This document shows positions 10,097-44,267 of a stretch of DNA of 64,000 bases, in pieces. The position numbers and the translations under genes are program-made. Under the pieces are notes generated by a model, which was not told the DNA's origin, did not search any database, and saw only the letters and a list, made by a program, of their open reading frames with translations. Source of the DNA: Bdellovibrionales bacterium (GTDB taxonomy: Bacteria; Bdellovibrionota; Bdellovibrionia; Bdellovibrionales; JAGQZY01); assembly GCA_964229765.1 (NCBI GenBank), contig CAXREJ010000053.1, forward strand, positions 121,129 through 185,128. Direction: 5' to 3'. How positions within the stretch are numbered: position 1 is the stretch's first letter; each line of letters begins with the position of its first letter.

Positions 10097-10250
10097 ACTT
10101 CGGGTTTAGATTATGGGTTTTTAAAGGGAAAGGATAGTTTGTGACTTATGGAGCTATGCGAAATGTGTCAGTTCTTGCAAATATTTTACTCATTTTTAAC
10201 AAGTTTTACGCAGAGTGAAACTGGCATAATTAGCCTGTTAAGGAGGAGTT

Positions 10251-10418: not shown

Positions 10419-10511
10419 ATACACATAAACTCAGAAAAGACTTCCTTTACACGTTTATCTCTTATTCCTAACTCTGAGTCCTTCAAAATTTTAAACAGCG
10501 CACAATAATAA

Positions 10512-10561
10512 GGTGAAAAGTTAAGTTGATACTAAATTGTAAGTAAACTTAACTTTCCACC
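10512..10561 (+). terminator. Long hairpin (16-bp arms, one mismatch, 18-nt loop) followed by a T-run; terminator or small structured RNA
   Basis: Arms are GGTGAAAAGTTAAGTT (10512-10527) and AACTTAACTTTCCACC (10546-10561), then tgtccattttt. It sits 94 nt downstream of the micro-ORF and upstream of the phoD-like gene. Confidence 0.4.
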
Positions 10562-10725
10562 TGTCCATTTTTCCCAAATCGAATTCTTAATAATATAAAA
10601 TTAGGTTAAGTTTCTATTCCAATCACACATTCTTTTGTCATGCCCCTTCTTTGGGTATAAAAGTGGTTTTGTTTTTAAGCCTATGGCTCAATCATTATTA
10701 TCTTAAACACAGGATGTAGCTCACT

Positions 10726-28024: not shown

Positions 28025-28052
28025 GATGAGACATATGAAAATGTGTCTCATC
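28025..28052 (+). promoter_or_regulatory. 9-bp perfect hairpin enclosing all three candidate start codons of the next gene
   Basis: GATGAGACA (28025-28033) pairs with TGTCTCATC (28044-52), with loop TATGAAAATG. The ATGs at 28026, 28035 and 28041 lie in the stem or loop. Confidence 0.4.
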
Positions 28053-28964
28053 GTTCTATTTTTATGCCCCCTCCTCTTTTCTTGTGGAAAAGAACAGGGT
28101 GATATTCTGTCGGTGAATTCCTCTTCTGAAAACACCCTCACTCCTGTGCAAATCATAACTCTCGGGGGAGATACCAATCACAGAGGTGTTACTTTATATG
28201 ATGAGAATGGATCCTTTCTGTCGGCTTTTAATTTTAGAGCCGAAGGGGCCACTCCTAGAAATTTAGTTCAATGGTCTGAAGACTCTGTCTTGATCTCATT
28301 GGATGTCACTGACTCTGTTTATGAACTTTCCTTTGATGGCACAAAAAACTTATTTCACGGTTCAAACCAACTCAATGGGAATATTTATGGTATAGCCGTT
28401 GACTCCCAAAGTTTTGTTTATGTGGTAGAAAGTAATAGAATTGAAGTGTTCGACTCTAATGGAAATCGTGATGGTTCAAAACTTATAAACACAACTGTTG
28501 GTGGCTGTACTCTATCTAATCCACGTGGAATTTTTATGAACTCCTCTGATCAACTTTATGTTTTGAATCAGGGAGGTGCGGATAATCTACTTATTTATGA
28601 TGTTTCTGGAAGTGCTGCGACTTGTGTGAGTTCTCAAGCCATTGGAAATAATCCTTATTCTTTAGTGATGCACTCGAATGGATATCTTTATATTACAACT
28701 CAAGCCGATGATCGTGTCTATCGCGCTGATCTCGATGGATCAAACCTGCAAGTCGTTTGGGATACAGATACATCTTTAATAAATAATCCAACTGGTATAG
28801 CTGAACTTCCTAACGGAGACCTTATTGTCGCTTCTTCGCAAACTGATTCGGTTGAGAGAATCACCACTTCGGGAGTGCGGGTTGGAAACTCGCCATTTAT
28901 CGAGGACTCTTTGAGTCTCAATCTACAAGATATCATTGTAGTGGGTGGAAGTGATGCGCAGTAA
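28026..28964 (+). CDS. NHL-repeat / beta-propeller lipoprotein
   Basis: Lipobox LLFSC|GK. Repeated units such as YVVESNRIEVFDSNGN, LYVLNQGGADNLLIYD, LYITTQADDRVYRADLDG and LIVASSQTDSVERI fit NHL-type propeller blades. Confidence 0.6.
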   Translation: MRHMKMCLIVLFLCPLLFSCGKEQGDILSVNSSSENTLTPVQIITLGGDTNHRGVTLYDENGSFLSAFNFRAEGATPRNLVQWSEDSVLISLDVTDSVYELSFDGTKNLFHGSNQLNGNIYGIAVDSQSFVYVVESNRIEVFDSNGNRDGSKLINTTVGGCTLSNPRGIFMNSSDQLYVLNQGGADNLLIYDVSGSAATCVSSQAIGNNPYSLVMHSNGYLYITTQADDRVYRADLDGSNLQVVWDTDTSLINNPTGIAELPNGDLIVASSQTDSVERITTSGVRVGNSPFIEDSLSLNLQDIIVVGGSDAQ

Positions 28965-29598
28965 GTTGATTTTGCTTTTCATTCTTTTTCCCTTAAGCAC
29001 TTTTGCAACCACTCAAAATGGGATTGGTTTAGAGTTAGGATTGGGGTATCCACAAGTACAACTCTCTGACGATGGGCAAAGAGCTCTTTACAGTGGTGTG
29101 GGAGTACAAGGTACAGCTTTATTTCCATTGCTCGATTATGGCAGTTTCTCTACCGATTTAGAAGTGAGTTACACTTATTACTCTTTAGAGAATAATAACG
29201 AAAGTGCACTCGTTAAGGAATGGAGTCATTACAGTGCCTTTGGCAGTGGTTTAAGGTTCAATCTTTCCTATTTATTTGTGGGATTAAATTACGCTTTTGC
29301 AAATAGTAAGCATTTACAAAGTGGCTCTAGTGGCGTGAATATCGAGTATGAGTTTAATCCTTTTGTTTGGCATGCAGGACTGGCTCTTCCCCTTTCTCCA
29401 CTCACGGCTTTAGTCATCGGCTATTCTGGCAACTTCCAAGGAGATATTTCTGTGGATGGAAGCGATTTAAAGTTTAATGATCAAACCGTGTGGGTACGGT
29501 TTCAGATAGATTTTGGAGTGAGCTTTCTGAATCTTCTCACTCCAGGTCAATCTTTTGAAAAAACACGAGACAGTTTTTTTCCCCAAGGAAATTTCTAG
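28954..29598 (+). CDS. Small outer-membrane beta-barrel-like protein
   Basis: Start placed at ATG 28954 (overlaps the upstream gene by 11 nt). Signal peptide LFILFPLSTFA|TT, alternating strands and a C-terminal Phe. Confidence 0.5.
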   Translation: MRSKLILLFILFPLSTFATTQNGIGLELGLGYPQVQLSDDGQRALYSGVGVQGTALFPLLDYGSFSTDLEVSYTYYSLENNNESALVKEWSHYSAFGSGLRFNLSYLFVGLNYAFANSKHLQSGSSGVNIEYEFNPFVWHAGLALPLSPLTALVIGYSGNFQGDISVDGSDLKFNDQTVWVRFQIDFGVSFLNLLTPGQSFEKTRDSFFPQGNF

Positions 29599-29606
29599 GT
29601 TTTAAT

Positions 29607-30767
29607 TTAAAATGTCTCTTGGATAACGCGACTCAAAGTTTTCCCCATATCCGCTGAAATTGAAATTCCTTGGAAAATATAGGTTTCTCCAAAATCAATT
29701 TCGTCATCAATAATAACGCGATGAGAAGTTCTTAATACATTATCACTGGTAGTAATGAACTCGGAGCCATCACTTCTTTTCACTAGAGCCTGAGCTGTCG
29801 CTGGTATATCTGTTTCCCAGGTGACAATAGCCAGCCCCTCGCCAATATCTTGAACTTTAAAATCAGTGATTTTTGGATTGGTTCCTTCGGTGCAAGGGTT
29901 AAAGATCTCCTTTAAGGGAAGATTCCAATTAGAGGCTGCAATAGGTTGCCAACCTCTTAATAGCATATCGGTATAAGTCTTTGTCGCTAAAGAGTTGTTA
30001 TTAGGATCAAAGAAGCGATGATTGCCAGAACGTCCACACTCCCCTTCACTTCGAGTCCCTGCATCCACTTTTCTCCAAAGAGGAATTAAAGAGATGTGAA
30101 AGCGTGGCCCTTGATAGTACTCAATTTGAACATCCATTGTTGTATCGTGGTCAAAATGAACGGTATCACCACAACCCATTTTAGTTTCGTGATCGCCGTC
30201 ATTGTTAACCACAATTTTTTGAACTCCATCGATATCTGTGAACTTCATAATAGTTCCATCATCTGACAAAAGTGCTAACTCGTACTCGCCCTCTTCATCT
30301 TCAGGGCTGAGTTTTAGAACGGATTTAAATCTTAGAGCAAAATATTCTATCAATTCATTTCCGGCGTCGTCTTTGATCACCTCACCGGTTTGTGATGGAA
30401 AGCCAGAATCAAACATTCGTGTGGGGATATTGAGATCTGTAAAGAAAAGCTCTTGCGTAGAAGCAGTTCCGTATTGGAAATAGTCTTCTAAACGATTGTA
30501 ATGTGGCTGAGTACTATCAAGATAAAAGAGTTCAGCAATCAAACCAGCTTGACTGTTATTATTACCACCGCCCCCCATAGGGTCACACACAACTTTATTA
30601 AGTGCGTGTTTATTGACATCATAGGGATGAAGATTAACGCTTTCCTCTGTGTTTTCAGAGAGGTTGTTTTGCGAATTAATAGAGTCATTGGAGCAAGCCG
30701 CTATCAATAAGATAAAAGAAAGAGTCATTGCTTTATGAAAACCCTTCTTTAAGTTTTGTTTTAGCAT
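29607..30767 (-). CDS. PA14-domain lipoprotein with C-terminal FN3/Ig-like domain
   Basis: Lipobox LLIAAC|S. PA14 pattern (GLIAELFYLD...FALRFKSVLKL...GEYELALLSDDGTIMKF...IEYYQGPRFHISLIPLW). The C-terminus ITDFKVQDIGEGLAIVTWETDIPATAQALV is FN3-like. Confidence 0.65.
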   Translation of the reverse strand: MLKQNLKKGFHKAMTLSFILLIAACSNDSINSQNNLSENTEESVNLHPYDVNKHALNKVVCDPMGGGGNNNSQAGLIAELFYLDSTQPHYNRLEDYFQYGTASTQELFFTDLNIPTRMFDSGFPSQTGEVIKDDAGNELIEYFALRFKSVLKLSPEDEEGEYELALLSDDGTIMKFTDIDGVQKIVVNNDGDHETKMGCGDTVHFDHDTTMDVQIEYYQGPRFHISLIPLWRKVDAGTRSEGECGRSGNHRFFDPNNNSLATKTYTDMLLRGWQPIAASNWNLPLKEIFNPCTEGTNPKITDFKVQDIGEGLAIVTWETDIPATAQALVKRSDGSEFITTSDNVLRTSHRVIIDDEIDFGETYIFQGISISADMGKTLSRVIQETF

Positions 30768-31028
30768 AAAACCTCCGCGCTCGAAGCTTTTTATATCTTA
30801 GCTTAAAAATAAAAAAACGCTTAGATTTTAATGATTTATCCTAATTTAAGATAATAGGATTTAGACAAAAAATAGATTTTTCGATGGGTCTCATAATAAA
30901 ATAGACATTTTTTTAAAGAAACAGCCTCAGCTTTAGAAAGCGAATGGATCCTTTTTATTTTTTAAATTAGTCTTCGCGAGAATAGGTTCAGTCATTTGGA
31001 GACGCATCGCATACCCAAAACATGACAG

Positions 31029-31739
31029 TCACCAAACTTTTCTTCTTATGAAAACAATAAGCCAAACTAGAAAAACAAAAATAAAATCTCCGCTTAATCC
31101 TTTTAAAGACAAGAAAGGTTGATTGTGATTAGGAGTTCCCGCTAAAGCCGAGCAGCCACCAAAAAGAAGTAAATTAGGATCTGTAGGATATAAATAACGA
31201 ACTCCATCTTTATCATCCTCAGAGAGGCTAGAAGGTAAGAACCAGTCATGATTTCGATAGGTCATAACTGAGGCGGGATCGTCACTATGGTGAAGCCCTA
31301 AAGCATGACCCATTTCGTGAACAAGAGTGCTCTCGATCGCCCCAGGTAGGTAGCCCCCAGGAACCAAGGTGTTGGCATTTAAAGCAATGGCAGCAGAACC
31401 ATTCTCCTCTGAATTAAAGGTAATTCCATTGGCATTACCCAACGGAAAGCAGCCAACCAAAATTTCACCTGGATTTGGAGTGTCCATAACATTTCTTGAG
31501 ACCTCTCCTCCCTTTTTTAATATAAGAGAGCTTCCAGGAATTTCATTCCACCAAGTTATTGTTGTGCTAATGGCTGAAGATAATTCTTCGTCAGAAACTC
31601 CATTGGCTCGACAAGCACCATTGGCAATATTAACTGTTGTATTAGAAGGGTCAGAGAGTCTATAGCCAGGACTAATTAGAACAAAAGCCATTGTAGGCTG
31701 TGAAATTAAAGTGAAGAGAAGGCTAAGTAAAAAAATCAT
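31029..31739 (-). CDS. Matrixin-type (M10) zinc metalloprotease with C-terminal hydrophobic/basic tail
   Basis: Signal peptide present. HExxHxxGxxH (HEMGHALGLHH) plus Met-turn (ASVMTY). The tail is GGCSALAG...FIFVFLVWLIVFIRRKVW. Confidence 0.8.
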   Translation of the reverse strand: MIFLLSLLFTLISQPTMAFVLISPGYRLSDPSNTTVNIANGACRANGVSDEELSSAISTTITWWNEIPGSSLILKKGGEVSRNVMDTPNPGEILVGCFPLGNANGITFNSEENGSAAIALNANTLVPGGYLPGAIESTLVHEMGHALGLHHSDDPASVMTYRNHDWFLPSSLSEDDKDGVRYLYPTDPNLLLFGGCSALAGTPNHNQPFLSLKGLSGDFIFVFLVWLIVFIRRKVW

Positions 31740-32383
31740 TAAAAATACCCCGTTAATGCAATTTGGTAGGACCAGGTTGCTTTATCTGAGTCTAAAATTT
31801 CAAAAAGAAAGAGAGAGAATCTTAAGCCCCAATTGACTCCACCCCCAAAACCATCTTGGTAGCCAGTGTCTGAGCTGAATAGAGAACTCGCTCCTCCAAA
31901 ACTGGGTTCAAAAAAATAGTAATCCATCCCAAGATCAAGACTTGTCGAGTAAGATGTGGAGGTGGATCCTGGTCTATAAGCGGTATCAAATCCTGATCCG
32001 TTGGGAACGGTCACAGCTCCTCCCTCCCCTTTGATACTTCTCATAAAGTTCCCTATTCCGTAGCGAAACTTTAAACGCTGACTCCAGCTGGGATTATAGA
32101 AAAAGTCGAAAAGTATAAAAACAGAATAGGATGTGTACTTTCCATAACTATCATCAGAACCTAAAATATGGTGAATGTATCCAAGTTGCGGAGACATCTC
32201 CCAACCATCAAAGAGGAAAAAATTGTGCCCGATAGCAAGATTCGGACTTAAGGAGGCTGCGGTTTTACTGCCAGAAGAATCTTGCACAGCATTTCGATGC
32301 TGAAAACCACCGAGCGAGGCATGAAAACCATGGGATATATGTGTAATGGAAAGGAGAATTAGTATAAGTCCAATTCTTAGCAT
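31739..32383 (-). CDS. Small outer-membrane beta-barrel-like protein
   Basis: 214 aa with a signal peptide. Aromatic-rich alternating strands and C-terminal GYF. TAATG overlap with the matrixin gene. Confidence 0.5.
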   Translation of the reverse strand: MLRIGLILILLSITHISHGFHASLGGFQHRNAVQDSSGSKTAASLSPNLAIGHNFFLFDGWEMSPQLGYIHHILGSDDSYGKYTSYSVFILFDFFYNPSWSQRLKFRYGIGNFMRSIKGEGGAVTVPNGSGFDTAYRPGSTSTSYSTSLDLGMDYYFFEPSFGGASSLFSSDTGYQDGFGGGVNWGLRFSLFLFEILDSDKATWSYQIALTGYF

Positions 32384-32452
32384 ATGTAGATAATATGCCT
32401 AAGAGGGATTAAAAAGAATCGCGGATCAAAATTCAAGCCTTAGGTAAGTGAT

Positions 32453-33178
32453 TTAAGTATGACTGTGCTTTGCAAAGTACTTATTCACCCAAGGGCGACA
32501 TTCACGGTTGATAATTTCAATGGTGAGCTTGTGTTGACCATCAATCGTCGTAATTCTCACATCAGATCCTCTTCTTTTAAAAGGACAAAGATGAGCGAGT
32601 TTTTCTAAATCTTTTCTGGAAATGGAATCAGTGGGTATGCTGATTAAAATGGAAGGCCCCCCTTTTTTGGAATGAACCTCAAAAGGACTCTGTAATATAT
32701 GGTAATTTGGAATAAAAGTTTTTGAACCTGTTTTAGATTGAATTTGAGTATTAAAGGGACCAATAGCTAAGACCTCGCCTTCAAGAGAGCCAATACTCAT
32801 ATAATCACCCACCCTCAATTCTCCTCTCATAGCAATAAAAAGTGAGCTTAATATGTTTCTTGCAGGTTCAATTAGAGAGAAACCAAAAATAACACTAAAG
32901 ATTACAAAAAAGAGGAGCGAAACAAATAAAGAGTTTTGAGAGACCGTGGTGAGGCCATAGAGAAATATAACTCCAGGAACTATAAAAGTTGTAATATTTA
33001 AAACTTGATAAAATAGGGTTCTCTTCTCAAGTGCTCCAGAGTTGCCCATAATAATGAAGAAGCGTCTTAACAAAAAATAGCTGGCGCCAGAAAATACAAT
33101 AAAAAAGCCAATTTGAAAAAAAGAGGCCACTTGTAAGGAGAGTTCAGGAAAGTCCATAGCTAGTGAATTATCATTCAT
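32453..33178 (-). CDS. Small MscS-family mechanosensitive channel
   Basis: 241 aa with three N-terminal TM helices, then the MscS beta-domain pattern (LRVGDYMSIGSLEGEVLAIGPFNTQIQSKTGSKTFIPNYHILQSPFEV). 4-nt overlap with the upstream giant gene. Confidence 0.65.
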   Translation of the reverse strand: MNDNSLAMDFPELSLQVASFFQIGFFIVFSGASYFLLRRFFIIMGNSGALEKRTLFYQVLNITTFIVPGVIFLYGLTTVSQNSLFVSLLFFVIFSVIFGFSLIEPARNILSSLFIAMRGELRVGDYMSIGSLEGEVLAIGPFNTQIQSKTGSKTFIPNYHILQSPFEVHSKKGGPSILISIPTDSISRKDLEKLAHLCPFKRRGSDVRITTIDGQHKLTIEIINRECRPWVNKYFAKHSHT

Positions 33179-36100
33179 TGTAGAATCCCCTCTTTTTTAA
33201 GCTCAATTCCTATAGGTAAAATCAGTGAATTTGGAATTTCAAAACTACTGCGATCAATCCCTTTTGATTTAATAAGATGGCACTGCTCAAGGTACTGGGT
33301 TTCATTATCTACAACGGAATATGATAAGCCAAGAGTGTGACTCATTTTTTGAACACTGAGGCTATGGTTGCAATAAAGCTGATTTAAAATCTGTTTTTGT
33401 AGGAATGAAAAATCGTGAATCATAGGTAGACCACGATCAATGGATTTGCTCATAGAAAGTTGAATTGTTTTTCCATCAGAGCTTTTAAGACTTCGTAGCC
33501 ACAAATAAATTAAATGGCGTAGGTGCCCATGAGACCTTTCGTAAAGAACTCTAAAGAACATTTCATCTTCAGTGGAAAGTCCGGCCTTTAGAGCGAACTC
33601 ACTCATAAATGTTTTTGGAAACTCCACTTCAAGCCCACTCAATCGATGGCGAGTCAGAATCACTTCTTTAGCTACTTCTAAATTAATCTCGTTAAGATCA
33701 ATAATCTTACTAAATAAGCTGCGAATCTTAAAAGCACGGTTTAGGGATTCTAGGTTAAAGCGAGTTAAAGAAACGATCCAATGAGTGTTGTTTGGAGATT
33801 TGTTAATAACTTCAAAGAGAGCTTCAAATTGATCCAAATGATGTCGGTTAAGCATTTGGTCGACGTTGTCTATGATGATAGTAGCTGGTTTTCTTCTGAG
33901 AGTGGCAATAATGGAGGCAGCATTGTTTTTTGTATTTAACGATCGAGATAAAATTGCCAAAGGACCACGGTAATCATCACCTTCGATACGAATAAGTCTT
34001 TCCGTTTCAATATCCATCTGTGCGACATTGATAAGTGAGGACTTGCCAATTCCACGATCTCCGATAATTAATATTTTTTGACTTTCGCTGGATGTCGACT
34101 CAGGATTTGCAAAATCTTTAAAATGCTTTTCTCGCGCTTTATGGGCGACAAAAAATCTTCTATCTTGAATAGGGTCAAGGCTAAAAAGTCGAAAGTAAAG
34201 ACGTGGTAAATCGGGTATTTGAGTATTTAAATCGTAAGTAGAGGTAATAAACTCTCTCACAGTGGCAGTATCAAGAGTGTGGGAGCTGAGCTTCTTTTTA
34301 AGGGTCTTATCAATATCTCGATCACTTTGTTGAAGAGATAGTTTTTTAAGCTTATCGTAATAATTTTTAAATCTTAAGTTCACGGCATCTCTCACCTCTC
34401 TGAACTTAAGAACTGTGCTGTGAAGTCTTTGTCGGAATTGATTTTTAGCAGTATGAACAACAGAAAAACGTTCAATGCCTTGTCTGACTTCCATTTGACA
34501 CTCTTCTAGGAGTTTTTCAGTCGACTCGTTGGATGATTTTATATACTCCATTAAACCATTATAGAGTTCTTCAATCTTTTCTCTTTCCGTGGCGATGGAG
34601 TTCTGCAAGCTTTCGCTCATTTCTAAGGTTTCCGATGAGCCCTTTTCTCCGGCGATTTGGGTTTCTAAGCTATAATTAATAATTGAAAAAGCTTGCTCCA
34701 TTTCCATCAACAATGATTCTAAGTAATTTGAAACCCCCTCAATTCTTTCTTCAATAACAGGTAAAAAGTTAATAAGAATGCTTTGTTCAAATAGCTCATG
34801 TAAATTGATTTTTTTTACAACAATTTCAGAAGGAGATTGGACTTGGTGGGCCGCTGTGTTTTCAGAGGCAATTTGAAATGTTCCTTCTTCCTTAGGAAGA
34901 CTTTTCTTGAGGTTAATTGAAATGTCGCGATTGAGGAGCCTAAAACTACCTCTCACATATTTTGATTTTAAATCAGCCTGTAAGTTCTCTTCGGCAAATG
35001 CTTTTGTCTCAGTAAGGAGTTGTTCAAAAGTTTTAGTATCTCTCTCATCTGCCTGATTAATTTTTTCGTTAATTTTATCGAAATATTCAAAAACTTCTTT
35101 AACAAGAGTATCAGCATTTGATTTTGCAATTTCGACTTGTTGGAAAAACTTTTCTTCTAAAAGTTTCTCAACCGCATGGGATAATAGAGCCGATTGAACA
35201 ATGACCTTCAGTCGATTGCGACAATAGATAAACTTTTCGTCCCAATTGAGTGAGTCGCTCTTTGCTTTTTCAAACATTTCTGTGATTTCAGGCTCAACTT
35301 GAGAGTATCGAATGGAACTGTCAGAAAGATAAGGTGTATTGATTTGTTGTAAGTGCTTAACCCACTTGTTAGCACATCTTGAAAATTCTTTATTGAAATC
35401 ACTTTTAACTGTGCGTAGCCAAAAATCATTTTCTTTTTGAATCTTTGCCATAATCTCTTGATTTTCAAAATTTTGATTTTCAAGAGAACGTTGAAAGATT
35501 TCAATGTGGCGACCAAGCAAATGATACCATGAACTTATTAATTCTGTAGTAAAGGAGCCAATAAGTGGTTCTAAGTTATACTTGGCTATTTTACGAAGAG
35601 GAACATCTCTTTCTGGTTTTTTATTAAACCAAAAGAGAGGGCGACGTAAAATTTTCCTCATTTTGATCCAAAGAGAATCGCCTTTTTGTATATAAATTCC
35701 TGAGTTCGGGAAAGGTCGTTTTTGTAAAACCAGGATAGAATCAATTTCCTTTTGCAACTGACTCATGGAATTGTAAGTGTCTTTGCCTTTGGCCGACATT
35801 TTTTTGAAATGATCATCAATTTTAGCGACAATCTCTCGTTCAGAAAGACCTTCCATTTGACCGAGTTCTTGTACAAAAGCAGTGAGAATTCCTTTTTGTG
35901 GAAAGAGTTGATTTTTTCTAAATATTTCAAAGTAATTGTTAGAGATTTCTAGAAAATGTTTTTCCAGATAAGGGTCTTCAAAAGTTTCAGCTTTAGAGTG
36001 AAGCATAAGATTAAAATCGTCTTCGTAAGAAGATGAGGTTGGTAAATCTTGAGTCTCGCTGGACTCTAAATCACTTTTTTCCTCTTTTTGGGACATGCTG

Positions 36101-37389
36101 TCCTCCTCTTCGGTATTGTCGGCATCGGGCTCTTCACTTTTTAAAACCATACGTAAAAAGACAGGACCTACTAATAAATTGAGAGTGACGAGGCCAATTC
36201 CTATATTAGTAATCAGTTCTGCATGATCAGATAAGTCACGACTGGCGATTTGAATTAATCCTAATGTCACACCGGCTTGGGGCAGATATCCTAACCAAGC
36301 TTTATTTTTGATTCCAGGTGCTTCTCCGTGGAAGTTACCTGCAATCCATGAAGAGGCTAAGAATGAGAGGGCTCGGGCAGCAAATAAAATCCCAGCCACA
36401 GGTAGAAACTGCCATGTGGTTGTTAGGTTTAGACCGGCTCCAACATTCGTAAAGAACACAACGAAAACTGGGAGGGATACTTTTTCTAGAGCATCATGAA
36501 GAAAATGGGGGTCTTTTGAAAAGTTTCTGACAACTATCCCCGCCATAATAAAGACTAATAAAAGTTCAAGATGGATGGCTTCGCTAATTTCAGCCGTGCC
36601 AAGAATCATGGCCGCAATAAAAATAAACATTTCCTGGCGAATAAAACGAATATAGGCAATAAAAAGTCCACCAAGGATAATACCTGCAATAAGAGAGTAA
36701 CCGATTTCTTTCATTAGGCGCATGAAGCTTCCGCCCATGTCTCCCCCACCACTGGCTACCGAATTAGCAAAAGACAACGCGACTGCTAAAATGATAACGA
36801 CAACCACGTCTTTTACAATGGCTGAGCCTAGAACCATCTGACTCATACGGCTCTTGGCTTTCATCTCTGAAATAACAGCAATCGAAATAGAAGGTGAAGT
36901 TCCAAGTGCAAGTGCTGCAAACACGAGTGTAATTGAAATAAGAGGAAGCCCCATGGGCATTCCAAAATCATAAACAAACTCATTGCTGAGGAAAACGCCA
37001 CCAATAAAGGTCAGCGCGAGTAAGATAATTTTTATGGCTGTTGTTGATAAAATAGGGGCAATAACCTTTTTTAAAGAACTAAAATGAAGCTCTAACCCAG
37101 CGGTTATGGCGATCAGTCCAATGGCCAGAGTGTTAAACATTTCAATTTCTTTAACAACGTTGGTTGAAAGAATTTTGAGAGCAAAAGGACCAAGTAGAAG
37201 TCCTGTTAAAATATAGCCGGTGACTCTGGGAAGTTTTAGTGATGATCCTATTTCAGATAAAGTGTAGGCCGATAAAAGAACTAAACCAATAGCAAGTAGG
37301 ACGGAATTGTGTGAATCACTCAGTATTCCAAACTGTTTGAGAACAACACAGATAGAAAATAGAATAAATAGAATAAATATTTTTCTCAT
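33175..37389 (-). CDS. Giant fusion: CPA2/Kef-type cation:proton antiporter domain, long helical region, P-loop (AAA_16/ORC-like) ATPase, winged-helix-like tail
   Basis: 1404 aa. N-terminal ~415 aa are polytopic with LKLPRVTGYILTGLLLGPFALKIL. An acidic linker follows. Walker A is ILIIGDRGIGKSSL (around nt 34040-34080) and Walker B-like is ATIIIDNVDQ. The C-terminal segment LSVQKMSHTLGLSYSVVDNETQYLEQCHLIKSKG is wHTH-like. Confidence 0.7.
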   Translation of the reverse strand: MRKIFILFILFSICVVLKQFGILSDSHNSVLLAIGLVLLSAYTLSEIGSSLKLPRVTGYILTGLLLGPFALKILSTNVVKEIEMFNTLAIGLIAITAGLELHFSSLKKVIAPILSTTAIKIILLALTFIGGVFLSNEFVYDFGMPMGLPLISITLVFAALALGTSPSISIAVISEMKAKSRMSQMVLGSAIVKDVVVVIILAVALSFANSVASGGGDMGGSFMRLMKEIGYSLIAGIILGGLFIAYIRFIRQEMFIFIAAMILGTAEISEAIHLELLLVFIMAGIVVRNFSKDPHFLHDALEKVSLPVFVVFFTNVGAGLNLTTTWQFLPVAGILFAARALSFLASSWIAGNFHGEAPGIKNKAWLGYLPQAGVTLGLIQIASRDLSDHAELITNIGIGLVTLNLLVGPVFLRMVLKSEEPDADNTEEEDSMSQKEEKSDLESSETQDLPTSSSYEDDFNLMLHSKAETFEDPYLEKHFLEISNNYFEIFRKNQLFPQKGILTAFVQELGQMEGLSEREIVAKIDDHFKKMSAKGKDTYNSMSQLQKEIDSILVLQKRPFPNSGIYIQKGDSLWIKMRKILRRPLFWFNKKPERDVPLRKIAKYNLEPLIGSFTTELISSWYHLLGRHIEIFQRSLENQNFENQEIMAKIQKENDFWLRTVKSDFNKEFSRCANKWVKHLQQINTPYLSDSSIRYSQVEPEITEMFEKAKSDSLNWDEKFIYCRNRLKVIVQSALLSHAVEKLLEEKFFQQVEIAKSNADTLVKEVFEYFDKINEKINQADERDTKTFEQLLTETKAFAEENLQADLKSKYVRGSFRLLNRDISINLKKSLPKEEGTFQIASENTAAHQVQSPSEIVVKKINLHELFEQSILINFLPVIEERIEGVSNYLESLLMEMEQAFSIINYSLETQIAGEKGSSETLEMSESLQNSIATEREKIEELYNGLMEYIKSSNESTEKLLEECQMEVRQGIERFSVVHTAKNQFRQRLHSTVLKFREVRDAVNLRFKNYYDKLKKLSLQQSDRDIDKTLKKKLSSHTLDTATVREFITSTYDLNTQIPDLPRLYFRLFSLDPIQDRRFFVAHKAREKHFKDFANPESTSSESQKILIIGDRGIGKSSLINVAQMDIETERLIRIEGDDYRGPLAILSRSLNTKNNAASIIATLRRKPATIIIDNVDQMLNRHHLDQFEALFEVINKSPNNTHWIVSLTRFNLESLNRAFKIRSLFSKIIDLNEINLEVAKEVILTRHRLSGLEVEFPKTFMSEFALKAGLSTEDEMFFRVLYERSHGHLRHLIYLWLRSLKSSDGKTIQLSMSKSIDRGLPMIHDFSFLQKQILNQLYCNHSLSVQKMSHTLGLSYSVVDNETQYLEQCHLIKSKGIDRSSFEIPNSLILPIGIELKKEGILQ

Positions 37390-38850
37390 TTATCCCTTTC
37401 TCCAGAAGGATGGGGTGAAAAGAGTTAAAAGAGCGAAAATTTCCAGACGCCCAGCAATCATATAGAAGCAAAGAACATATTTACCAAGAGGATGGATGAA
37501 TTCGTAATTTTGAGTGGGCCCAACAGACCCGAAGCCAGGGCCGACACTGGAAAGACAAGCAACAACACTGCTGGCAGCCCCGACCCAGTCCATCCCTAGT
37601 GCAAACATGATAAATACACCAAAGATATAAAGAAAAAAGTAGGTGCAGAAGAAAATAAAAACAGAAGCTAAGACACGTCTTGATATTGTTTGGTTTCCTA
37701 ACTTTGTACTTACAACCTCTTGAGGATGCAAAGTGAGACGAAGCTCTTGAATACATCTCTTGAAAACAATTAAGACTCGTGACACTTTTAAACCGCCGGC
37801 TGTCGATCCTGCACAGCCTCCAATAAACATACATAAAAAAAGTAAGTATTTACTGACGAGAGGATAGATGTCGAAGTCAGCAGTCATTAAGCCCGTGGTT
37901 GTGGTCACAGCCACGGTTTGGAAGAGAGCGTCTCGAAACTCTTCATGCCAGTAATAGGCATCAAATTTTGTGGTGGCAAAAAAGATGACAACGGCAACGG
38001 CTAAATTGAGTCCAATAAAAAACCTCACCTCAGTACTAGTAAAGAGTCGATCCACCTGTCCGCGGAATAGACCATAATAAAGCCCGAAGTTGATTCCACC
38101 AATCAGCATAAAAATAATAACAACCCATTCAGCAAAGGGGTTTTCAAAGGCACCAAGACTTGCTGCTTTTGTAGAGAAACCACCGGTAGACAGAGTTGAA
38201 AACGCATGGCAAACGGCATCGAAAACACTCATGCCAGCCAATATGAGTAGACCAGTACAGGTAGCGGTGAAGAACATATAAACCCACCACAAACGCAATG
38301 CGGTTTGTTTGATTCTTGGCTTCAATCCTTCAGTGATGGGGCCTGCGACTTCTGTTTTGAAAAGATGTTTTCCTCCCAAGCCCAGTTGCGGAAAAATCGC
38401 TACAAAGAGTACAACAATTCCCATTCCACCAATCCAATGAAGTAGCACTCTCCACAGATGTGTGGCTCTAGAGAGCCCCTCAATATCACTGATAACAGTG
38501 GCGCCAGTGGTGGTTAAACCAGATATGGCTTCAAATGTGGATGAGCTAATGGATGAAATACTTCCTTCTATAAAAAAAGGCAGACCAGCCACCACTCCCG
38601 ACCCCATCCATCCAATGGCAACAATTCCAAAAGCCTCTTTGCGAGAGACCATACGAATATCAACCTTAAAGCGATAACTTAAGTATCTTAATAAAAGTCC
38701 CATCCCCATGGAAACTCCACTGGCGACAGAGTAGGCAAAAAGTGAGGCTTGTGAACTATCAACATAGGCCAAGGCGAGAGGAGCCATCATAAAGAAAGCC
38801 AGCACAATAAAAAGTTGTCCTACATAATAGGAGACAATTGTTTTATGCAA
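37390..38850 (-). CDS. trkH: TrkH-type potassium uptake membrane subunit
   Basis: 486 aa. Repeated pore-loop motifs (SGLTTTGATV, LSTGGFS, TTTGLMT, CAGSTAGGLKVSR) are typical of TrkH/KtrB. The stop is immediately followed by the ATG of the giant gene (TAAATG). Confidence 0.85.
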   Translation of the reverse strand: MHKTIVSYYVGQLFIVLAFFMMAPLALAYVDSSQASLFAYSVASGVSMGMGLLLRYLSYRFKVDIRMVSRKEAFGIVAIGWMGSGVVAGLPFFIEGSISSISSSTFEAISGLTTTGATVISDIEGLSRATHLWRVLLHWIGGMGIVVLFVAIFPQLGLGGKHLFKTEVAGPITEGLKPRIKQTALRLWWVYMFFTATCTGLLILAGMSVFDAVCHAFSTLSTGGFSTKAASLGAFENPFAEWVVIIFMLIGGINFGLYYGLFRGQVDRLFTSTEVRFFIGLNLAVAVVIFFATTKFDAYYWHEEFRDALFQTVAVTTTTGLMTADFDIYPLVSKYLLFLCMFIGGCAGSTAGGLKVSRVLIVFKRCIQELRLTLHPQEVVSTKLGNQTISRRVLASVFIFFCTYFFLYIFGVFIMFALGMDWVGAASSVVACLSSVGPGFGSVGPTQNYEFIHPLGKYVLCFYMIAGRLEIFALLTLFTPSFWRKG

Positions 38851-38857
38851 TAATAAC

Positions 38858-40195
38858 CTACTTCAGTTTTCGGAACATATACTCTAGTCCCTTGAGTTCA
38901 CTTCTTTTTAACACAATAATAATGATATCTCCCCCATAAACGTCGGAATCACCATCGCTAAAAGAGAATTCTTCGCTGCGTGATATACCGACAAGATAGC
39001 ATCCAGGAGGAATAGGGAGATCTCGTATTTTCAAAGTACTGTTTTTAATATTTTGAGGAACCTGAAATTCTCCCACTAAGTAATCGGTCTCTGGGATAGC
39101 CGCATCGGTGAGTAAGGTTTGATTCGGAAAATATTTATTCACCGCTTGAGAAATAAGCTCATGGGCACTGGCCGTTCCTTTGACTCCAAGATGTTCGTAA
39201 ACATGAGCGTAACCAGGACGGTGCACAAGAGTATAGGAGTGTTTCACTCCAATTTCTTGACTGACGAGTGAAGACATAAGGTTCACCTCATCAGCGCGAG
39301 TAACGGCCAATGTATAGTCGGCCATTTCCACATGCTCATCTTGTAGTAATGGTAAACTTGTTCCATCCCCATGAACAATGGTGGCGTGATCTAGTTTGTC
39401 GGCAAGAAACTCACATCGTCTGCGATCAACATCAATAAGGGTGAGTCGGTTTTCCACTTCTTGTAAAGACTTAGCCAGCTGATATCCCACGTCACCACCA
39501 CCGATAATCACGGCTTTTTTTCCAGGGATTTGCACAAGTCTTCTCATAGCGATGGGAAGTTTTTCAAGTTTTGAAGCTAGAAGAATTTTATCACCATTGT
39601 AGAGATGGGAGAGGTCGGCACATCGTCTTAATTCTCCATCTCGGAAAACACCAATGACTTTGGCACTTTTTCCAAGTTCAACATCGGAACCTGATTTTTC
39701 TAAATAACGACAGTTTTCAGTAACCTCAACAAGGGCCACTGAAATTGAATTGGAAGAGAAGTTTTCGACAAAGGGCATGTCGATTTTGCGGACAAGCCTC
39801 AGTAGTTCAGCACTGACAAGGCGAGCGGCACAAACGATAGCAAAACTTCCAAGGACTCCCCGCTCAATTCCTCCTGAAGTCATAATAAACTCAGGAGCAT
39901 CCACTCGAGCAACCGTCCGTTTAGCACCAAGAGAGTTAGCGAGTGATGTAATAACAAGGTTGGTGTCATCATGACTAGTTACGCCAACAACAAGATCCGC
40001 AGAACTAACACCCACCTCTTGTAAAGTTTTACGAAAAGTTCCGTTACCCCTTAAGGTCATAACATCTGTTTTCTCTTCCACTCTTTCAAGAGCTCGCTCG
40101 TTGGTATCTATAATGATGACATCTTCTGATCTTTGGGAAAGCTCTTTAGCAAGAAAGCTACCCACATCTCCTGCTCCGACTATGACAATTTTCAC
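38858..40195 (-). CDS. trkA: TrkA, tandem RCK/KTN NAD-binding regulatory subunit
   Basis: 445 aa with two Rossmann GxGxxG motifs (MKIVIVGAGDVGSFLA; AVIIGGGDVGYQLA), each followed by a TrkA-C-like segment. Confidence 0.85.
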   Translation of the reverse strand: MKIVIVGAGDVGSFLAKELSQRSEDVIIIDTNERALERVEEKTDVMTLRGNGTFRKTLQEVGVSSADLVVGVTSHDDTNLVITSLANSLGAKRTVARVDAPEFIMTSGGIERGVLGSFAIVCAARLVSAELLRLVRKIDMPFVENFSSNSISVALVEVTENCRYLEKSGSDVELGKSAKVIGVFRDGELRRCADLSHLYNGDKILLASKLEKLPIAMRRLVQIPGKKAVIIGGGDVGYQLAKSLQEVENRLTLIDVDRRRCEFLADKLDHATIVHGDGTSLPLLQDEHVEMADYTLAVTRADEVNLMSSLVSQEIGVKHSYTLVHRPGYAHVYEHLGVKGTASAHELISQAVNKYFPNQTLLTDAAIPETDYLVGEFQVPQNIKNSTLKIRDLPIPPGCYLVGISRSEEFSFSDGDSDVYGGDIIIIVLKRSELKGLEYMFRKLK

Positions 40196-41481
40196 TCGTC
40201 CCCCTCTTCAATGGGTTTCACTTCAATAACCTGCTCATTGTCTAAAATAACTTTTTTAAGTACAGAATTGGCTACGACATCGTTGAAGAAAATGCTACCA
40301 AGAATTGTGGTTAAAAATAACTGGGAAAGCTCTGGAAACTCTTTTGAAAGACTCAAAGCAATCGCCACAGCAATAAGATCTTGACCTAATAAGCCCTGAC
40401 CCAGTCTTGATAGCTTTCTTTTGGTAATAAGAGTGTAAATCCTATGAACGAATCCTGTTAACAAAATCGCACGCACCACAAAATAAGTGGCTGGCAAGAG
40501 CCAACTTTGATTGATCTCGGGTCTCCAAGTGGCGCCGCCAAAGACAAGGAGTAAAACGAAAATAGGCTCTTCAATTCGTATGAGATTCTCTTTTAATACC
40601 GCAGCGTAGGTTGAAAATAAACCGATGGTGAGCCCTGTGATAAAGCATACAAACATGGAAGAGACGCTTAAGAGTGTTCCAAGGCCTGCTGCAAAAATAA
40701 TGGCACCAAGAGCAGCGAGCATAATGCGATTTTCATCGGACTGTTTACCAATAAAAAGTGAAAAGAGTAAGCCACAAAGAAGTCCTGAAGTGATCGTGGC
40801 TAACAACCACTCTGGAATGGAAATGTGAAGAGAAGTGGCCGTGGTATCACCACTGGCCATTGCCAATACAATTCCCAATAAAGTGACGGCGACGACTTGC
40901 CCAGTGGGAGCCAAAATACTGAGGACTCTCGTTATTTCTGAGCGTGTTTTGTGAAATTTAGAAATCATTCCCAAACTTAATAGTGAGGCTGAACAGGCCG
41001 TGGCACTCACTCCTAAGGCAAACCAAAACTGTCTTCTATTAATTTCTTGGATCATCCCAAGTATTTTAAAACGAGAGGCATTTTCTTCTGAAAAGAAATT
41101 CAATGTCCCAAGGTCAAAACCAATATTTTCAAACTCTACAGCCAAAGGAGCTAGAAAATAAAAGGTTATGGTCATAGCAACGAAAACCAGAAGTCCGCTA
41201 ATAATTCCACTAAAAAAGGTTTTTTTATTTTGCATTAGAAATTTAACTCTCACTCCGAGAAGAAATCCCGCAAAGCCAGTTAATAAATCAATGAGTGGGT
41301 CCATTCTGTAAAGAAGCTCCTCAGAGAGAATTCCAAAACCCATATAGGAACCGAGAAGTAAACCAATGATTAAATAAATCACACCAGAGAATACAAAGTG
41401 TGGAGTCTCAAAGCGTCGGAGAAACCGACCAATGAGGAAACTGAATACGAGCAGAACAGTTAAAATAGTGGTGCTTGTCAT
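40192..41481 (-). CDS. CPA-type cation:proton antiporter-like membrane protein (no soluble domain)
   Basis: 429 aa with about 12 TM helices. N-terminal pattern RRFETPHFVFSGVIYLIIGLLLGSYMGFGIL ... LLTGFAGFLLGVRVKF resembles Na+/H+-exchanger-family proteins. 4-nt overlap with trkA. Confidence 0.55.
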   Translation of the reverse strand: MTSTTILTVLLVFSFLIGRFLRRFETPHFVFSGVIYLIIGLLLGSYMGFGILSEELLYRMDPLIDLLTGFAGFLLGVRVKFLMQNKKTFFSGIISGLLVFVAMTITFYFLAPLAVEFENIGFDLGTLNFFSEENASRFKILGMIQEINRRQFWFALGVSATACSASLLSLGMISKFHKTRSEITRVLSILAPTGQVVAVTLLGIVLAMASGDTTATSLHISIPEWLLATITSGLLCGLLFSLFIGKQSDENRIMLAALGAIIFAAGLGTLLSVSSMFVCFITGLTIGLFSTYAAVLKENLIRIEEPIFVLLLVFGGATWRPEINQSWLLPATYFVVRAILLTGFVHRIYTLITKRKLSRLGQGLLGQDLIAVAIALSLSKEFPELSQLFLTTILGSIFFNDVVANSVLKKVILDNEQVIEVKPIEEGDE

Positions 41482-41514
41482 GGTGCGTCCTTATCCATAG
41501 TTTACTCTTTATAC

Positions 41515-41886
41515 TTGAGTCAAGCAAAGCTGTCCCCTACTTTTGATCCTGGTATGGCGATTAAAGAAACTCTCCAATGGTCCATTGTAAAAAAATACGC
41601 TCGTAGAGCGGGCAAGGAAGTATTGGCTATCGCAGAGGCAGCCTATATTACACTCAACGACCCTGATGTCTCTTGGCGCCATAAAAGTGTTATCTTGGGT
41701 GCTCTTGTTTATTTGATCACACCCATTGATGCTCTTCCCGACTTTCTTCCAGGAGGCTACGCCGATGATCTTTCTGTGATGCTGACGGCGATATTAGCTA
41801 CAGGTCATGCTGGTAAAAAACATTTGAAAAACTGCCGATTAAAACATGGGCTCAAAGAGCCTGATGATAATAAGGAAAAAACGTGA
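41515..41886 (+). CDS. DUF1232 (YkvA-like) membrane protein
   Basis: Motif LVYLITPIDALPDFLPGGYADDLSVM is the DUF1232 signature. TTG start; the internal ATG (MAIKE) is an alternative. Confidence 0.65.
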   Translation: MSQAKLSPTFDPGMAIKETLQWSIVKKYARRAGKEVLAIAEAAYITLNDPDVSWRHKSVILGALVYLITPIDALPDFLPGGYADDLSVMLTAILATGHAGKKHLKNCRLKHGLKEPDDNKEKT

Positions 41887-42854
41887 ATCTTTTGAAACGA
41901 CCCAGACGTAATCGTAAAAATGCAACCTTTAGACATTGGAGAAAAGAGACCTCTTTAACAAGAGAAGACTTTGTGTTCCCTGTTTTCGTAGTTGATGGAC
42001 AAAAACAAAAACAAGAGATCTCGGCTATGCCAGGTCAGTTTCGATACTCTATAGATGAGCTTTTGCCTGTTTGTGAAAAGGCTTTAAATAAAGGTGTAAA
42101 AGCCTTAGCCCTGTTCCCAGCCATCGAAGATTCCTTAAAAGACTCACAAGCCTCAGAAGCTCTCAATCCAGAAAACCTTCTTTGTCGCACCCTCAAAACA
42201 ATCAAAAAAGAATTTCCTGAACTCATTCTTATTTCTGATGTGGCACTTGATCCTTATTCCAGTGATGGTCATGATGGATTAGTCAAAAATGGAGAAATTC
42301 TCAATGATGAAACTCTTGAGATTTTAGAGAAGATGGCTTGTTTGCAGGCTATGAATGGAGCTGATGTTGTGGCCCCTTCTGATATGATGGATGGAAGAGT
42401 CTTAAAAATAAGACAAGGTTTGGATAATCTAGGTCTTCAGAACACCTCTATTATTTCTTATTGTGCAAAATATGCTTCGGCTTTTTACGGCCCCTTTAGA
42501 GAGGCCCTCGACTCCGCTCCGAGAGGGGGAGATAAGAAGACTTACCAGATGGACCCTGGGAGTAAAAGAGAAGCTTTGATTGAAGCTGAGCTTGATGAGG
42601 ACGAAGGAGCTGACATTTTAATGGTTAAACCTGCACTGGCTTATTTGGATATCATTAACGATTTAAGACAACACTCTCATCTGCCCATTGCTGCCTATAA
42701 TGTCAGTGGAGAGTACGCTATGATTAAGGCGGCTTCAGAAAAAGGTTGGATTGATGAGAAAAAAGCCATTGGTGAGATGTTATTAAGCATTAAAAGATCT
42801 GGTGCTGACCTTATTTTTACTTACTTTGCGTTAGATGATTTTACAATAGAGTGA
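41883..42854 (+). CDS. hemB: Porphobilinogen synthase (delta-aminolevulinate dehydratase)
   Basis: 323 aa. Motifs RPRRNRKN, LIFPVFV-type segment, SDVALDPYSSDGHDG, MVKPALAYLDII and YNVSGEYAM. GTGA overlap with the upstream gene. Confidence 0.93.
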   Translation: MNLLKRPRRNRKNATFRHWRKETSLTREDFVFPVFVVDGQKQKQEISAMPGQFRYSIDELLPVCEKALNKGVKALALFPAIEDSLKDSQASEALNPENLLCRTLKTIKKEFPELILISDVALDPYSSDGHDGLVKNGEILNDETLEILEKMACLQAMNGADVVAPSDMMDGRVLKIRQGLDNLGLQNTSIISYCAKYASAFYGPFREALDSAPRGGDKKTYQMDPGSKREALIEAELDEDEGADILMVKPALAYLDIINDLRQHSHLPIAAYNVSGEYAMIKAASEKGWIDEKKAIGEMLLSIKRSGADLIFTYFALDDFTIE

Positions 42855-43691: not shown

Positions 43692-44267
43692 TTAATTTTC
43701 GGGTTTGTAATCCCCTCCGTGGAGCTTTTCAGACTTTAGGGCCTTGATAAACCGACAAAAGCCCTGTGCCTGACTTTCTAGAAGTTGGCAAATGACTTCA
43801 TCTTCAATTTTACCATCTTTAATAAGGCCCCAAACATTGTGAAGAAATACGCGGTCAGGATAAATAAAAGCGTTGCGGTAACCAAAGATCTGTTGCAGAT
43901 GCTCTACCGGCCTTAATCCACCAAATCGTCCACCTAAGCCTATAAAAGCCACCGGTCTGTGCTCAAAGGTTTCAGGGAAGCGCCAATGATCAATAAAGTA
44001 TTTAAGAGCGCCAGGCATTGAGCCATTGTACTCAGGGCAAACTACAATTAAACCATCAGAGTCTAATAGTTCATCAATGGCTTTTTTGATTTTTTCAGGC
44101 TTATGCTCTTCCGAATAACTCTCATTTTTTAAATCGTCGACTCCAACATCTTTGATATTCATAATTCGTACATCAACGCCTTGTTTTTCATAAAGGGGTT
44201 TGATGAAGTTAGCCACTTCTTCTGAGCGTGAGCCCAATCGATTTGTTCCTACTAAAATATGCAACAT
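43692..44267 (-). CDS. NAD(P)H-dependent FMN reductase family flavoprotein
   Basis: 191 aa. MLHILVGTNRLGSRSEEVA and PEYNGSMPGALKYFIDH are flavodoxin-like FMN-reductase motifs. Confidence 0.75.
   Translation of the reverse strand: MLHILVGTNRLGSRSEEVANFIKPLYEKQGVDVRIMNIKDVGVDDLKNESYSEEHKPEKIKKAIDELLDSDGLIVVCPEYNGSMPGALKYFIDHWRFPETFEHRPVAFIGLGGRFGGLRPVEHLQQIFGYRNAFIYPDRVFLHNVWGLIKDGKIEDEVICQLLESQAQGFCRFIKALKSEKLHGGDYKPEN

Follow-up and report, generated by a model that had tools for sequence, protein, structure and literature searches.

A single open reading frame (ORF) on the minus strand of a 64,000-nucleotide (nt) stretch of Bdellovibrionales bacterium DNA (assembly GCA_964229765.1, contig CAXREJ010000053.1, positions 121,129 to 185,128; hereafter the window) encodes a 1404-amino acid (aa) fusion protein. 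In this protein, a CPA2-like membrane domain is followed by an acidic linker, a helical bundle of about 600 aa, an ORC/Cdc6-like AAA+ base, a lid, and a winged helix. The protein would serve the neighbouring MscS-like channel as its cytoplasmic partner (probability about 0.5), being tethered to a CPA2 pair within a trkAH cluster and working as an ORC-like nucleotide-dependent switch. The proposal is built on five observations: the domain architecture, the conservation of the fusion, the strict pairing with an MscS gene, the co-occurrence of a CPA paralogue, and the status of the catalytic motifs.

The reading frame at 33175..37389 runs from ATG to TGA through 1404 codons without interruption. 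An initial annotation of the window, made from the sequence alone, had described this single frame without naming a strand, and all peptides it quoted were located in the translation: the transporter hallmark LKLPRVTGYILTGLLLGPFALKIL (aa 51-74), the acidic linker (aa 418-447), the lead-in FVAHKAREKHF (aa 1080-1090), the Walker A segment ILIIGDRGIGKSSL (aa 1106-1119), the Walker B-like segment ATIIIDNVDQ (aa 1169-1178), and the C-terminal winged-helix stretch. The parts of the protein, with the evidence for each in brackets, are the following:

33175..37389, minus strand: whole ORF, CPA2-helical-AAA+-winged-helix fusion protein, 1404 aa (ORF reading and full-length homologues)
36139..37389, minus strand: polytopic CPA2-like (Na_H_Exchanger) domain, aa 1-417, with about 12-13 hydrophobic segments (Pfam, hydropathy)
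36808..36813, minus strand: K193-D194, ion-site motif at CPA positions 6-7 (alignment to N160-D161 of MjNhaP1)
35980..36138, minus strand: acidic, poorly conserved linker, aa 418-470, isoelectric point (pI) 4.05 (composition; predicted local distance difference test (pLDDT) score under 50 where the soluble model begins)
34225..35979, minus strand: predicted long-helix bundle containing two small beta hairpins, aa 471-1055 (AlphaFold2 models; no Pfam match)
33685..34224, minus strand: conserved lead-in (LPxxYxRL...FF) and AAA+ alpha/beta base, aa 1056-1235 (ORC4 profile match, Foldseek, motif conservation)
34039..34062, minus strand: Walker A, G1110-D-R-G-I-G-K1116-S1117, conforming to GxxGxGK[ST] (motif alignment)
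33859..33882, minus strand: Walker B, T-I-I-I-D1174-N1175-V-D1177, with Asn at the position of the AAA+ catalytic Glu (motif alignment)
33445..33684, minus strand: helical lid, aa 1236-1315, carrying R1247-H-R-L-S-G1252, which is invariant, and R1291, a candidate sensor-2 Arg (model, alignment)
33178..33444, minus strand: winged helix and C-terminal helix, aa 1316-1404, pI 6.4 (DSSP of the model, weak winged helix-turn-helix matches)

The fusion is conserved. A search with the soluble part of the protein retrieved at least 17 full-length fusion homologues (1299-1410 aa, 48-65% identical) from independent Bdellovibrionota-type assemblies, one of them named as a Bdellovibrionales metagenome-assembled genome. 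Two much more distant fusions (P0043 and P0092) were found by exhaustive profile search, and P0031 and P0126 from the profile search are N-truncated fragments beginning within the CPA2 domain. The search with the CPA2 domain returned many 'partial' Myxococcota/Nannocystaceae proteins whose colinearity with the ORF of the window extends from the CPA2 domain into the helical part. In the neighbor-joining tree of the soluble module, all fusions and fragments formed one clade, sister to the stand-alone proteins. Four Bdello-type proteins (P0010, P0021, P0022, and P0023) have no CPA2 domain, and since TrkH directly abuts the ATPase gene in these loci, the domain is absent there rather than split off. 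One of them, P0010 (L007:1274-4207; 977 aa, 55% identical to the soluble part in the window), branches within the fused Bdello-type clade of the same tree; this position suggests a secondary loss of the CPA2 domain in the P0010 lineage. The L007 contig has 2x long-read coverage and begins inside trkH, with the region upstream of trkH outside the contig.

The existence of such unfused versions in related genomes would be expected if the long ORF were an assembly or sequencing artefact joining a transporter gene to a separate ATPase gene. The probability of this is close to nil, given the at least 17 full-length fusions in different assemblies and sources, the distant fusions in other lineages, and the unfused loci, where no neighbouring gene for the missing domain exists and TrkH abuts the ATPase gene. 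The CPA2-ATPase fusion is real and old. The continuity of the ORF and its conservation in related genomes, both raised by the initial annotation as points to check, were thus supported, the latter with an extension to Myxococcota and with unfused versions occurring as well. No Pfam, NCBIfam, or PADLOC model describing the fusion was found, and no paper describing either the fusion or the ATPase-MscS module, in line with the earlier statement that no described cation:proton antiporter linked to an AAA+/STAND-like ATPase plus a DNA-binding-like module was known; literature searches with 'MscS' were crowded by mesenchymal stem cells.

The soluble module belongs to a large family of its own. At E ≤ 1e-3, 2979 representatives were retrieved by the profile search, and 872 at E ≤ 1e-30; they are typically about 1000 aa long and stand-alone. 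These stand-alone relatives contain no hydrophobic segment and for this reason are regarded as soluble partners. No Pfam, NCBIfam, or PADLOC family was found for them, the names given in the sources do not go beyond 'hypothetical protein' or 'cation:proton antiporter', and a word-indexed homologue search with the family alignment returned 5 proteins with no informative name. The family is unnamed, and it was defined here by a soluble protein of about 950-1050 aa with an LPxxYxRL lead-in, a GxxGxG P-loop, W1204, R1247..SG1252, and W1297, and by an MscS-like gene directly downstream; the soluble part of the protein in the window fits this MscS-adjacent ORC-like ATPase family.

A genome scan, limited to one genome per species and to a sequence pattern and hence undercounting, returned 80 loci from Ignavibacteria, Bacteroidota (Fulvivirga, Aquimarina, Polaribacter, Flavobacteriales, Prolixibacteraceae, Saprospiraceae, and Cyclobacteriaceae), and KSB1. 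An MscS-like ORF was located directly downstream of the ATPase gene on the same strand in 75 of the 80 loci, usually at -4 to +12 nt from the stop codon; in the remaining five, less than 1 kb of sequence follows the ATPase gene. In all Bdello-type loci, fused or unfused, and in the distant fused loci, the gene directly downstream is likewise MscS-like. No other broadly conserved neighbour was found around the 80 loci, the flanks of which consist of housekeeping genes with no recurrent defence gene. The similarity to the query follows taxonomy (Ignavibacteria > Cytophagia > Flavobacteriia > Bacteroidia), a pattern expected of vertical descent. In many Ignavibacteria loci, a second MscS-like gene is situated directly upstream of the ATPase gene (e.g., L010:121-1035 and 4091-5062), and several Flavobacteriales loci carry two tandem MscS-like genes downstream (e.g., L050:8772-9872 and 9872-10774). 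The extra genes may represent heteromeric channels or two channels sharing one partner.

The fold of the soluble module was predicted with AlphaFold2. The model of aa 430-1404, built from a 23-sequence alignment (mean pLDDT 76), consists of long helices and two hairpins up to about aa 1052, followed by an alpha/beta P-loop domain, a helical lid, a winged helix, and a terminal helix. The P-loop NTPase recognised by the initial annotation in the C-terminal region was supported by three lines of evidence. The Pfam AAA model PF00004 matched aa 1106-1231 with 22.8 bits, marginally over its cut-off of 21.2; the best match of the family profile in the PDB was ORC4 (E 5e-6); and Foldseek of the soluble model against the PDB retrieved ORC4, ORC1, Cdc6, and archaeal Orc1/Cdc6, then RuvB, over 350-480 columns with E 3e-8 to 1e-6 (top entries 8s0e_D, 7jpq_D, 5uj7, 2qby, 1fnn, and 2v1u, at about 360-480 columns and E 3e-8 to 3e-6). 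On the ORF, AAA_16 (18.5 vs 32.6 bits), nSTAND1 (13.1 vs 27.1), MCM, and other P-loop Pfam models remained below their cut-offs. Of the three ATPase types named earlier (AAA_16, ORC-Cdc6, and STAND), the ORC/Cdc6-like fold was thus retained and the other two were not. From the model, the C-terminal 350-400 aa or so are predicted to form one ORC/Cdc6-like AAA+ unit with the winged helix included. The tail itself, correctly seen as winged-helix-like in the initial annotation, gave weak winged helix-turn-helix matches of the Csa3 type at aa 1326-1377 (NCBIfam), the CasR type (PADLOC), and the MarR type.

The catalytic motifs were surveyed in 151 aligned family members, comprising 24 of the fused/Bdello-type clade and 127 others. 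Within the clade, the Walker A Lys (K1116) is kept in 22 of 24 sequences, with Arg in the other two, whereas only 16 of the 127 other members have Lys there. The position is mostly occupied by Ala, Ile, or Thr in the latter (GEKGSGxT[ST], about 87% of stand-alone members), and 92/127 carry a Lys four residues earlier; the pattern could mean a pseudo-ATPase or a relocated lysine. The Walker B of the clade reads hhhhD-N-x-D, with D1174 and N1175 in 24/24 and no catalytic Glu, and that of the others E-N or E-D. The candidate Arg finger R1223 (22/24) and the candidate sensor-2 Arg R1291 (24/24), both assigned by alignment position and model, are mostly Ser/Ala in the 127 others. The LPxxYxRL lead-in, G1115, W1204, R1247...S-G1252, and W1297 are invariant family-wide. 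The best reading of these motifs is that the protein in the window would be an ATP-binding, slow-hydrolysing switch, and we take the nucleotide site to be degenerate in most of the wider family. Such degeneration would make the ancestral partnership with MscS independent of a canonical ATPase cycle and perhaps of ATP binding.

The membrane domain was assigned with Pfam Na_H_Exchanger PF00999, which covers aa 41-417 with E 1.7e-27 and 96.7 bits against a cut-off of 26.2 (model positions 7-374/375). The NCBIfam CPA2 model TIGR00932 (2a37) matched with E 9.5e-19 and 67.9 bits, under its 238.3-bit cut-off. According to hydropathy, the hydrophobic membrane segments are confined to aa 1-417, with none further C-terminal. 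No solved CPA2 structure is detectable by sequence from this domain; the sole solved structure that is detectable, by a weak match, is MjNhaP1, in which E156 stands opposite S189 (LGSAIVKD vs EAESIFND). In CPA1, a Glu is found at CPA motif position 5, four residues ahead of the ND/DD motif (Masrati et al. 2018, PMC6181914). As no Glu occupies this position in the window, the domain is assigned on its sequence to a CPA2-like rather than a CPA1 type.

The essential Asp of motif position 7 (D194) is kept and conserved, as is an Arg in a later helix (R339). The characterised CPAs carry D, N, or Q at position 6, giving DD, ND, or QD (PMC6181914, PMC11150392); KefC has Q155-D156 and NapA D-D (PMC11150392). 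The K-D found here is kept in all fused homologues and in some uncharacterised stand-alone relatives (about 430-470 aa, about 30% identity), and more distant CPA relatives have D-D or D-N at the ion site. The K-D site marks an uncharacterised CPA2 subfamily with both stand-alone and fused members. The proteins concerned, besides the fusion in the window, are P0207, P0209, P0211-P0214, P0222, and P0223, and related proteins show A-D, L-D, M-D, T-D, or G-D. No TrkA_N or TrkA_C (KTN/RCK) match was detected in the ORF with Pfam, and the RCK domains of the cluster belong to the separate TrkA gene. The initial annotation had called the N-terminal part a Kef/CPA2-type antiporter. Its CPA2-like character was upheld by the Pfam match and the lack of the position-5 Glu, and the label 'Kef-type' was rejected because the KTN/RCK domain is absent and the ion motif is K-D, not Q-D; TIGR00932 also scored only 67.9 of 238.3 bits.

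The fusion ORF is the fourth of five genes packed on the minus strand in the order 429-aa CPA paralogue, TrkA, TrkH, fusion ORF, and MscS-like gene, with gaps of 0-7 nt or 4-nt overlaps. Its four neighbours are the following:

32453..33178, minus strand: MscS-like channel, 241 aa, its start overlapping the stop of the fusion (ATGA) (Pfam MS_channel_2nd, E 9.9e-13)
37390..38850, minus strand: TrkH, 486 aa, its stop codon abutting the ATG of the fusion (Pfam TrkH, E 1.3e-67)
38858..40195, minus strand: TrkA, 445 aa, two TrkA_N + TrkA_C, with a 7-nt gap to TrkH and a 4-nt overlap with the 429-aa gene (Pfam)
40192..41481, minus strand: 429-aa polytopic protein, divergent CPA paralogue (profile-profile comparison)

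The 429-aa protein had no Pfam match, and BLASTP against the fused CPA2 domain was not significant; hhalign aligned the two over 363 columns with a probability of 98.1% and E 7e-14. It has G-Q at the position of the K-D of the fused domain. The distant fused locus L008, where trk genes are absent, encodes an orthologue with 34% identity. In total, the paralogue is present in the fused loci L006, L008, and L090 and absent from the unfused L001 and L002; the paralogue and the fused CPA2 domain were gained or lost together. Fused and unfused Bdello-type loci share the order ALAD-DUF1232-...-TrkA-TrkH-[ATPase]-MscS. The association with Trk is not family-wide but confined to the Bdello-type clade and one Ignavibacteria-like locus, L004, the only non-Bdello locus with a Trk gene detected nearby. 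In the latter (L004:6070-8084, stand-alone P0024), TrkH and a short TrkA lie beside an MscS-ATPase-MscS unit on the opposite strand. From the gene spacing in the window, we infer that the five genes may be transcribed as one operon.

Upstream of the cluster and divergent from it, genes for a DUF1232 membrane protein (41515-41886, plus strand) and HemB/ALAD (41883-42854, plus strand) keep their position in Bdello-type loci both with and without the fusion. A minus-strand ORF of 191 aa (43692-44267), located upstream at a distance of about 2 kb from the cluster, is of the flavodoxin-like/FMN-reductase type, and its counterpart in L001 has Flavodoxin_2/FMN_red matches. KefF and KefG belong to the same flavodoxin-like/FMN-reductase family; a link of the 191-aa ORF to the CPA2 domain is doubtful, as the ORF is also found beside unfused loci.

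The region between the membrane domain and the AAA+ module had been described as heptad-like coiled coil of no recognised family. Its helical nature and the lack of a Pfam family were borne out, and the coiled coil was not: aa ~455-1090 are predicted to be a folded helical bundle with two beta hairpins. Modelled alone with AlphaFold2, aa 452-1060 reached a pLDDT of 81.5 and a predicted template modelling score (pTM) of 0.65. Foldseek found no PDB match for this segment at E ≤ 0.001, and below that significance it listed only designed helical bundles and axonemal coiled proteins; no fold is therefore named for it.

Based on these data, the soluble module would be the cytoplasmic partner subunit of a dedicated MscS-type channel, in which a helical scaffold is followed by a nucleotide switch with an ORC/Cdc6-like AAA+ fold and by a winged helix. 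In the Bdellovibrionota/Myxococcota clade, this partner would be covalently tethered, through the flexible acidic linker, to a CPA2-like exchanger domain. CPA exchangers function as dimers, as KefC does (PMC11150392). Because of this dimeric habit and because both CPA-type domains co-occur, the exchanger domain probably pairs with the degenerate paralogue at the head of the cluster in a heterodimer of one site-bearing and one degenerate protomer. The AAA+ module, with its Walker A Lys, candidate Arg finger, and candidate sensor-2 Arg intact, would bind ATP. Hydrolysis would be slow or nil since an invariant Asn takes the place of the Walker B Glu, which favours a conformational or oligomerisation switch over a motor. 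The helical domain and the winged helix would touch the cytoplasmic face of the MscS-like channel and, via the tether, the exchanger, and the nucleotide or energy state, or another cytoplasmic cue, would determine how the release valve and the exchanger are gated, or how active they are, in step with K+ uptake. A physical complex, the binding of ATP, the direction of regulation, and the ions transported are all presumed in this scheme. ATP-gated or nucleotide-sensing control of ion flux is the best supported of the three meanings suggested in the initial annotation.

Several points weigh against the proposed nucleotide-dependent partner. The main caveat is that most members of the wider family have no Walker A Lys, Arg finger, or sensor-2 Arg; the nucleotide switch may be clade-specific or unimportant. 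The physical complex is presumed, and the contact surface is a guess, because no structural counterpart of the helical region was found. The stoichiometries are not obviously compatible: MscS forms heptamers, CPA exchangers form dimers, and hexamers are common among AAA+ assemblies. The operon status comes from gene spacing only, and a promoter/terminator scan of 31000-42500 gave background-level results. In addition, the K-D site could mean that the CPA2 domain is not a conventional cation/proton exchanger. A broader statement, that the module represents an unrecognised multi-phylum class of MscS accessory subunit (helical domain plus ORC/Cdc6-like AAA+ switch) with a CPA2 exchanger pair captured in Bdellovibrionota/Myxococcota, is offered as a tentative one.

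The degenerate sites would also fit a nucleotide-independent scaffold or assembly factor for the MscS-like channel, and here for the CPA pair as well, in which the AAA+ fold is a structural relic without ATP gating. The Walker A Lys survives in only 16/127 non-fused members, Ser/Ala have replaced the candidate Arg finger and the candidate sensor-2 Arg, MscS pairing is universal despite this degeneration, and the helical region is large (about 600 aa) and accounts for most of the length of the family. Such a role is unlikely for the protein in the window, however, where the site is strongly constrained across the fused clade (Walker A Lys and R1223 in 22/24; R1291, D1174, and N1175 in 24/24), which is unexpected for a relic. 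Another reading, put forward in the initial annotation as a defence NTPase with ion flux as its effector, is an anti-phage or abortive-infection system in which a STAND/ORC-like NTPase opens MscS-like and CPA2 effectors to collapse ion gradients. An NTPase with a membrane effector is a common defence layout, similarities to AAA_16, nSTAND1, and BrxC_BrxD-type P-loops were weakly detected, and plant NLR resistosomes appear low in the Foldseek list. Nevertheless, when the ATPase, its MscS partner, the CPA paralogue, and stand-alone relatives were compared with PADLOC-DB 2.0, the only match was a generic CasR-type winged helix-turn-helix on the tail. The same housekeeping synteny (hemB/ALAD, DUF1232, trkAH, and acyl-CoA dehydrogenase) surrounds homologues only 41-65% identical, the 80 other genomes have housekeeping flanks with no recurrent defence neighbour, the distribution tracks taxonomy, and the P-loop is degenerate in most members. 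A defence function is accordingly very improbable.

The winged helix raises the question of a membrane-tethered transcription regulator that binds DNA and couples the status of ion transport to gene expression. The winged helices of ORC/Cdc6 bind DNA, the PDB entries 2qby and 2v1u are among the Foldseek matches, and the tail has the weak Csa3-, CasR-, and MarR-type similarities given above. Against this, the winged helix has a pI of 6.4 (5.8-7.2 in most relatives), the predicted recognition helix YSVVDNETQYLEQCHLI contains neither Lys nor Arg, and the sole conserved genomic correlate is the channel gene and not a regulon. Moreover, a winged helix normally belongs to the ORC/Cdc6/STAND fold and for that reason provides no independent evidence for DNA binding. 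The 'DNA-binding-like module' of the initial annotation is therefore kept as a winged helix integral to the ORC/Cdc6-type fold; a DNA-binding role is unlikely, and the transcription regulator as a whole is about as improbable as the defence system.

Compared with known systems, the proposed nucleotide-dependent partner can be placed with the transporters and channels that are regulated by a nucleotide-binding module in the cytoplasm, and the new point is its genomic context. In MscK and the MscS-like channels with cNMP domains, MscS activity is expected to be modulated by additional cytoplasmic or periplasmic modules. Here, the MscS-like protein is small and canonical, and the extra module is a separate ORC-like AAA+ protein of about 1000 aa encoded upstream with spacing of the translational-coupling type. 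In TrkAH, a ring of RCK-domain TrkA gates TrkH with ATP/ADP. It resembles the proposed system in that a cytoplasmic partner gates a cation pathway in response to nucleotides, and it lies in the same tight gene cluster, but its regulator is a Rossmann-type RCK instead of an AAA+ fold. The control of KefC and TrkH by RCK/KTN domains follows a logic similar to the proposed gating by nucleotide state. Nucleotide-binding cytoplasmic domains that gate CPA2 proteins have a precedent in the RCK domains of KefC (PMC11150392). KefC/KefB also share with the fusion a CPA2-type membrane domain, a flexible linker, a cytoplasmic nucleotide-binding module, a likely role in K+ homeostasis, and gating by a tethered domain (PMC11150392). 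They differ in having a C-terminal KTN/RCK domain and ancillary KefF/KefG, whereas the fusion has about 980 aa of helical bundle, ORC-like AAA+ module, and winged helix, K-D instead of Q-D, a TIGR00932 score far below the cut-off, and a degenerate CPA paralogue and an MscS-like protein as partners.

With ORC/Cdc6 proteins (archaeal Orc1/Cdc6 and eukaryotic ORC1/ORC4/Cdc6), the module shares the AAA+ base, the helical lid with its Arg, the C-terminal winged helix, and a DExD-like Walker B (here D-N-x-D). The identity is only 10-20%, and the protein in the window has a 600-aa helical N-terminal extension, a transporter, Asn in place of the catalytic Glu, and a near-neutral or acidic winged helix; there is no Pfam Cdc6/ORC match, and the genomic partners in all loci are ion-transport genes, not replication genes. 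STAND/AAA_16 NTPases resemble it in the pre-P-loop lead-in (FFxGR/FVAHK...), the weak AAA_16 and nSTAND1 similarities, and the order of P-loop, helical, and winged-helix parts, and a non-Glu second Walker B residue suggests a switch rather than a motor. The STAND label was rejected: the Pfam STAND scores are below their cut-offs, and the protein ends after the winged helix, with no C-terminal repeat sensor (TPR, WD40, or LRR). In addition, ORC/Cdc6 and RuvB outrank NLRs in Foldseek, and the genomic context is not that of a conflict system.

MscS and CPA2 proteins are known to be regulated by membrane tension, by RCK/KTN domains, by small ligands, and by flavoprotein partners. In Bacteroidota, Ignavibacteria, KSB1, Bdellovibrionota, and Myxococcota, a strictly conserved ORC/Cdc6-like partner of about 1000 aa is encoded beside a dedicated MscS paralogue. 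This implies that one layer of channel control or assembly has gone unstudied, and the fusion in the window is natural evidence that the module acts at the membrane with ion-flux proteins. If the proposed switch is true, it would be the first of the AAA+/ORC type to control the gating of a channel and an exchanger directly, and a single regulated complex would then connect an osmotic release valve with cation/proton exchange and with K+ uptake through Trk. The testable ideas raised are complex formation, ATP binding without hydrolysis, and a heterodimer of active and degenerate CPA protomers; Fulvivirga, Aquimarina, and Polaribacter are cultured carriers of the unfused module.

Downstream of the cluster, positions 28026-32383 contain a run of predicted secreted proteins and lipoproteins, including beta-propeller-like and outer-membrane-like ORFs. 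A 236-aa protein encoded there (31029-31739) carries the zinc-metalloprotease motif HExxHxxGxxH.

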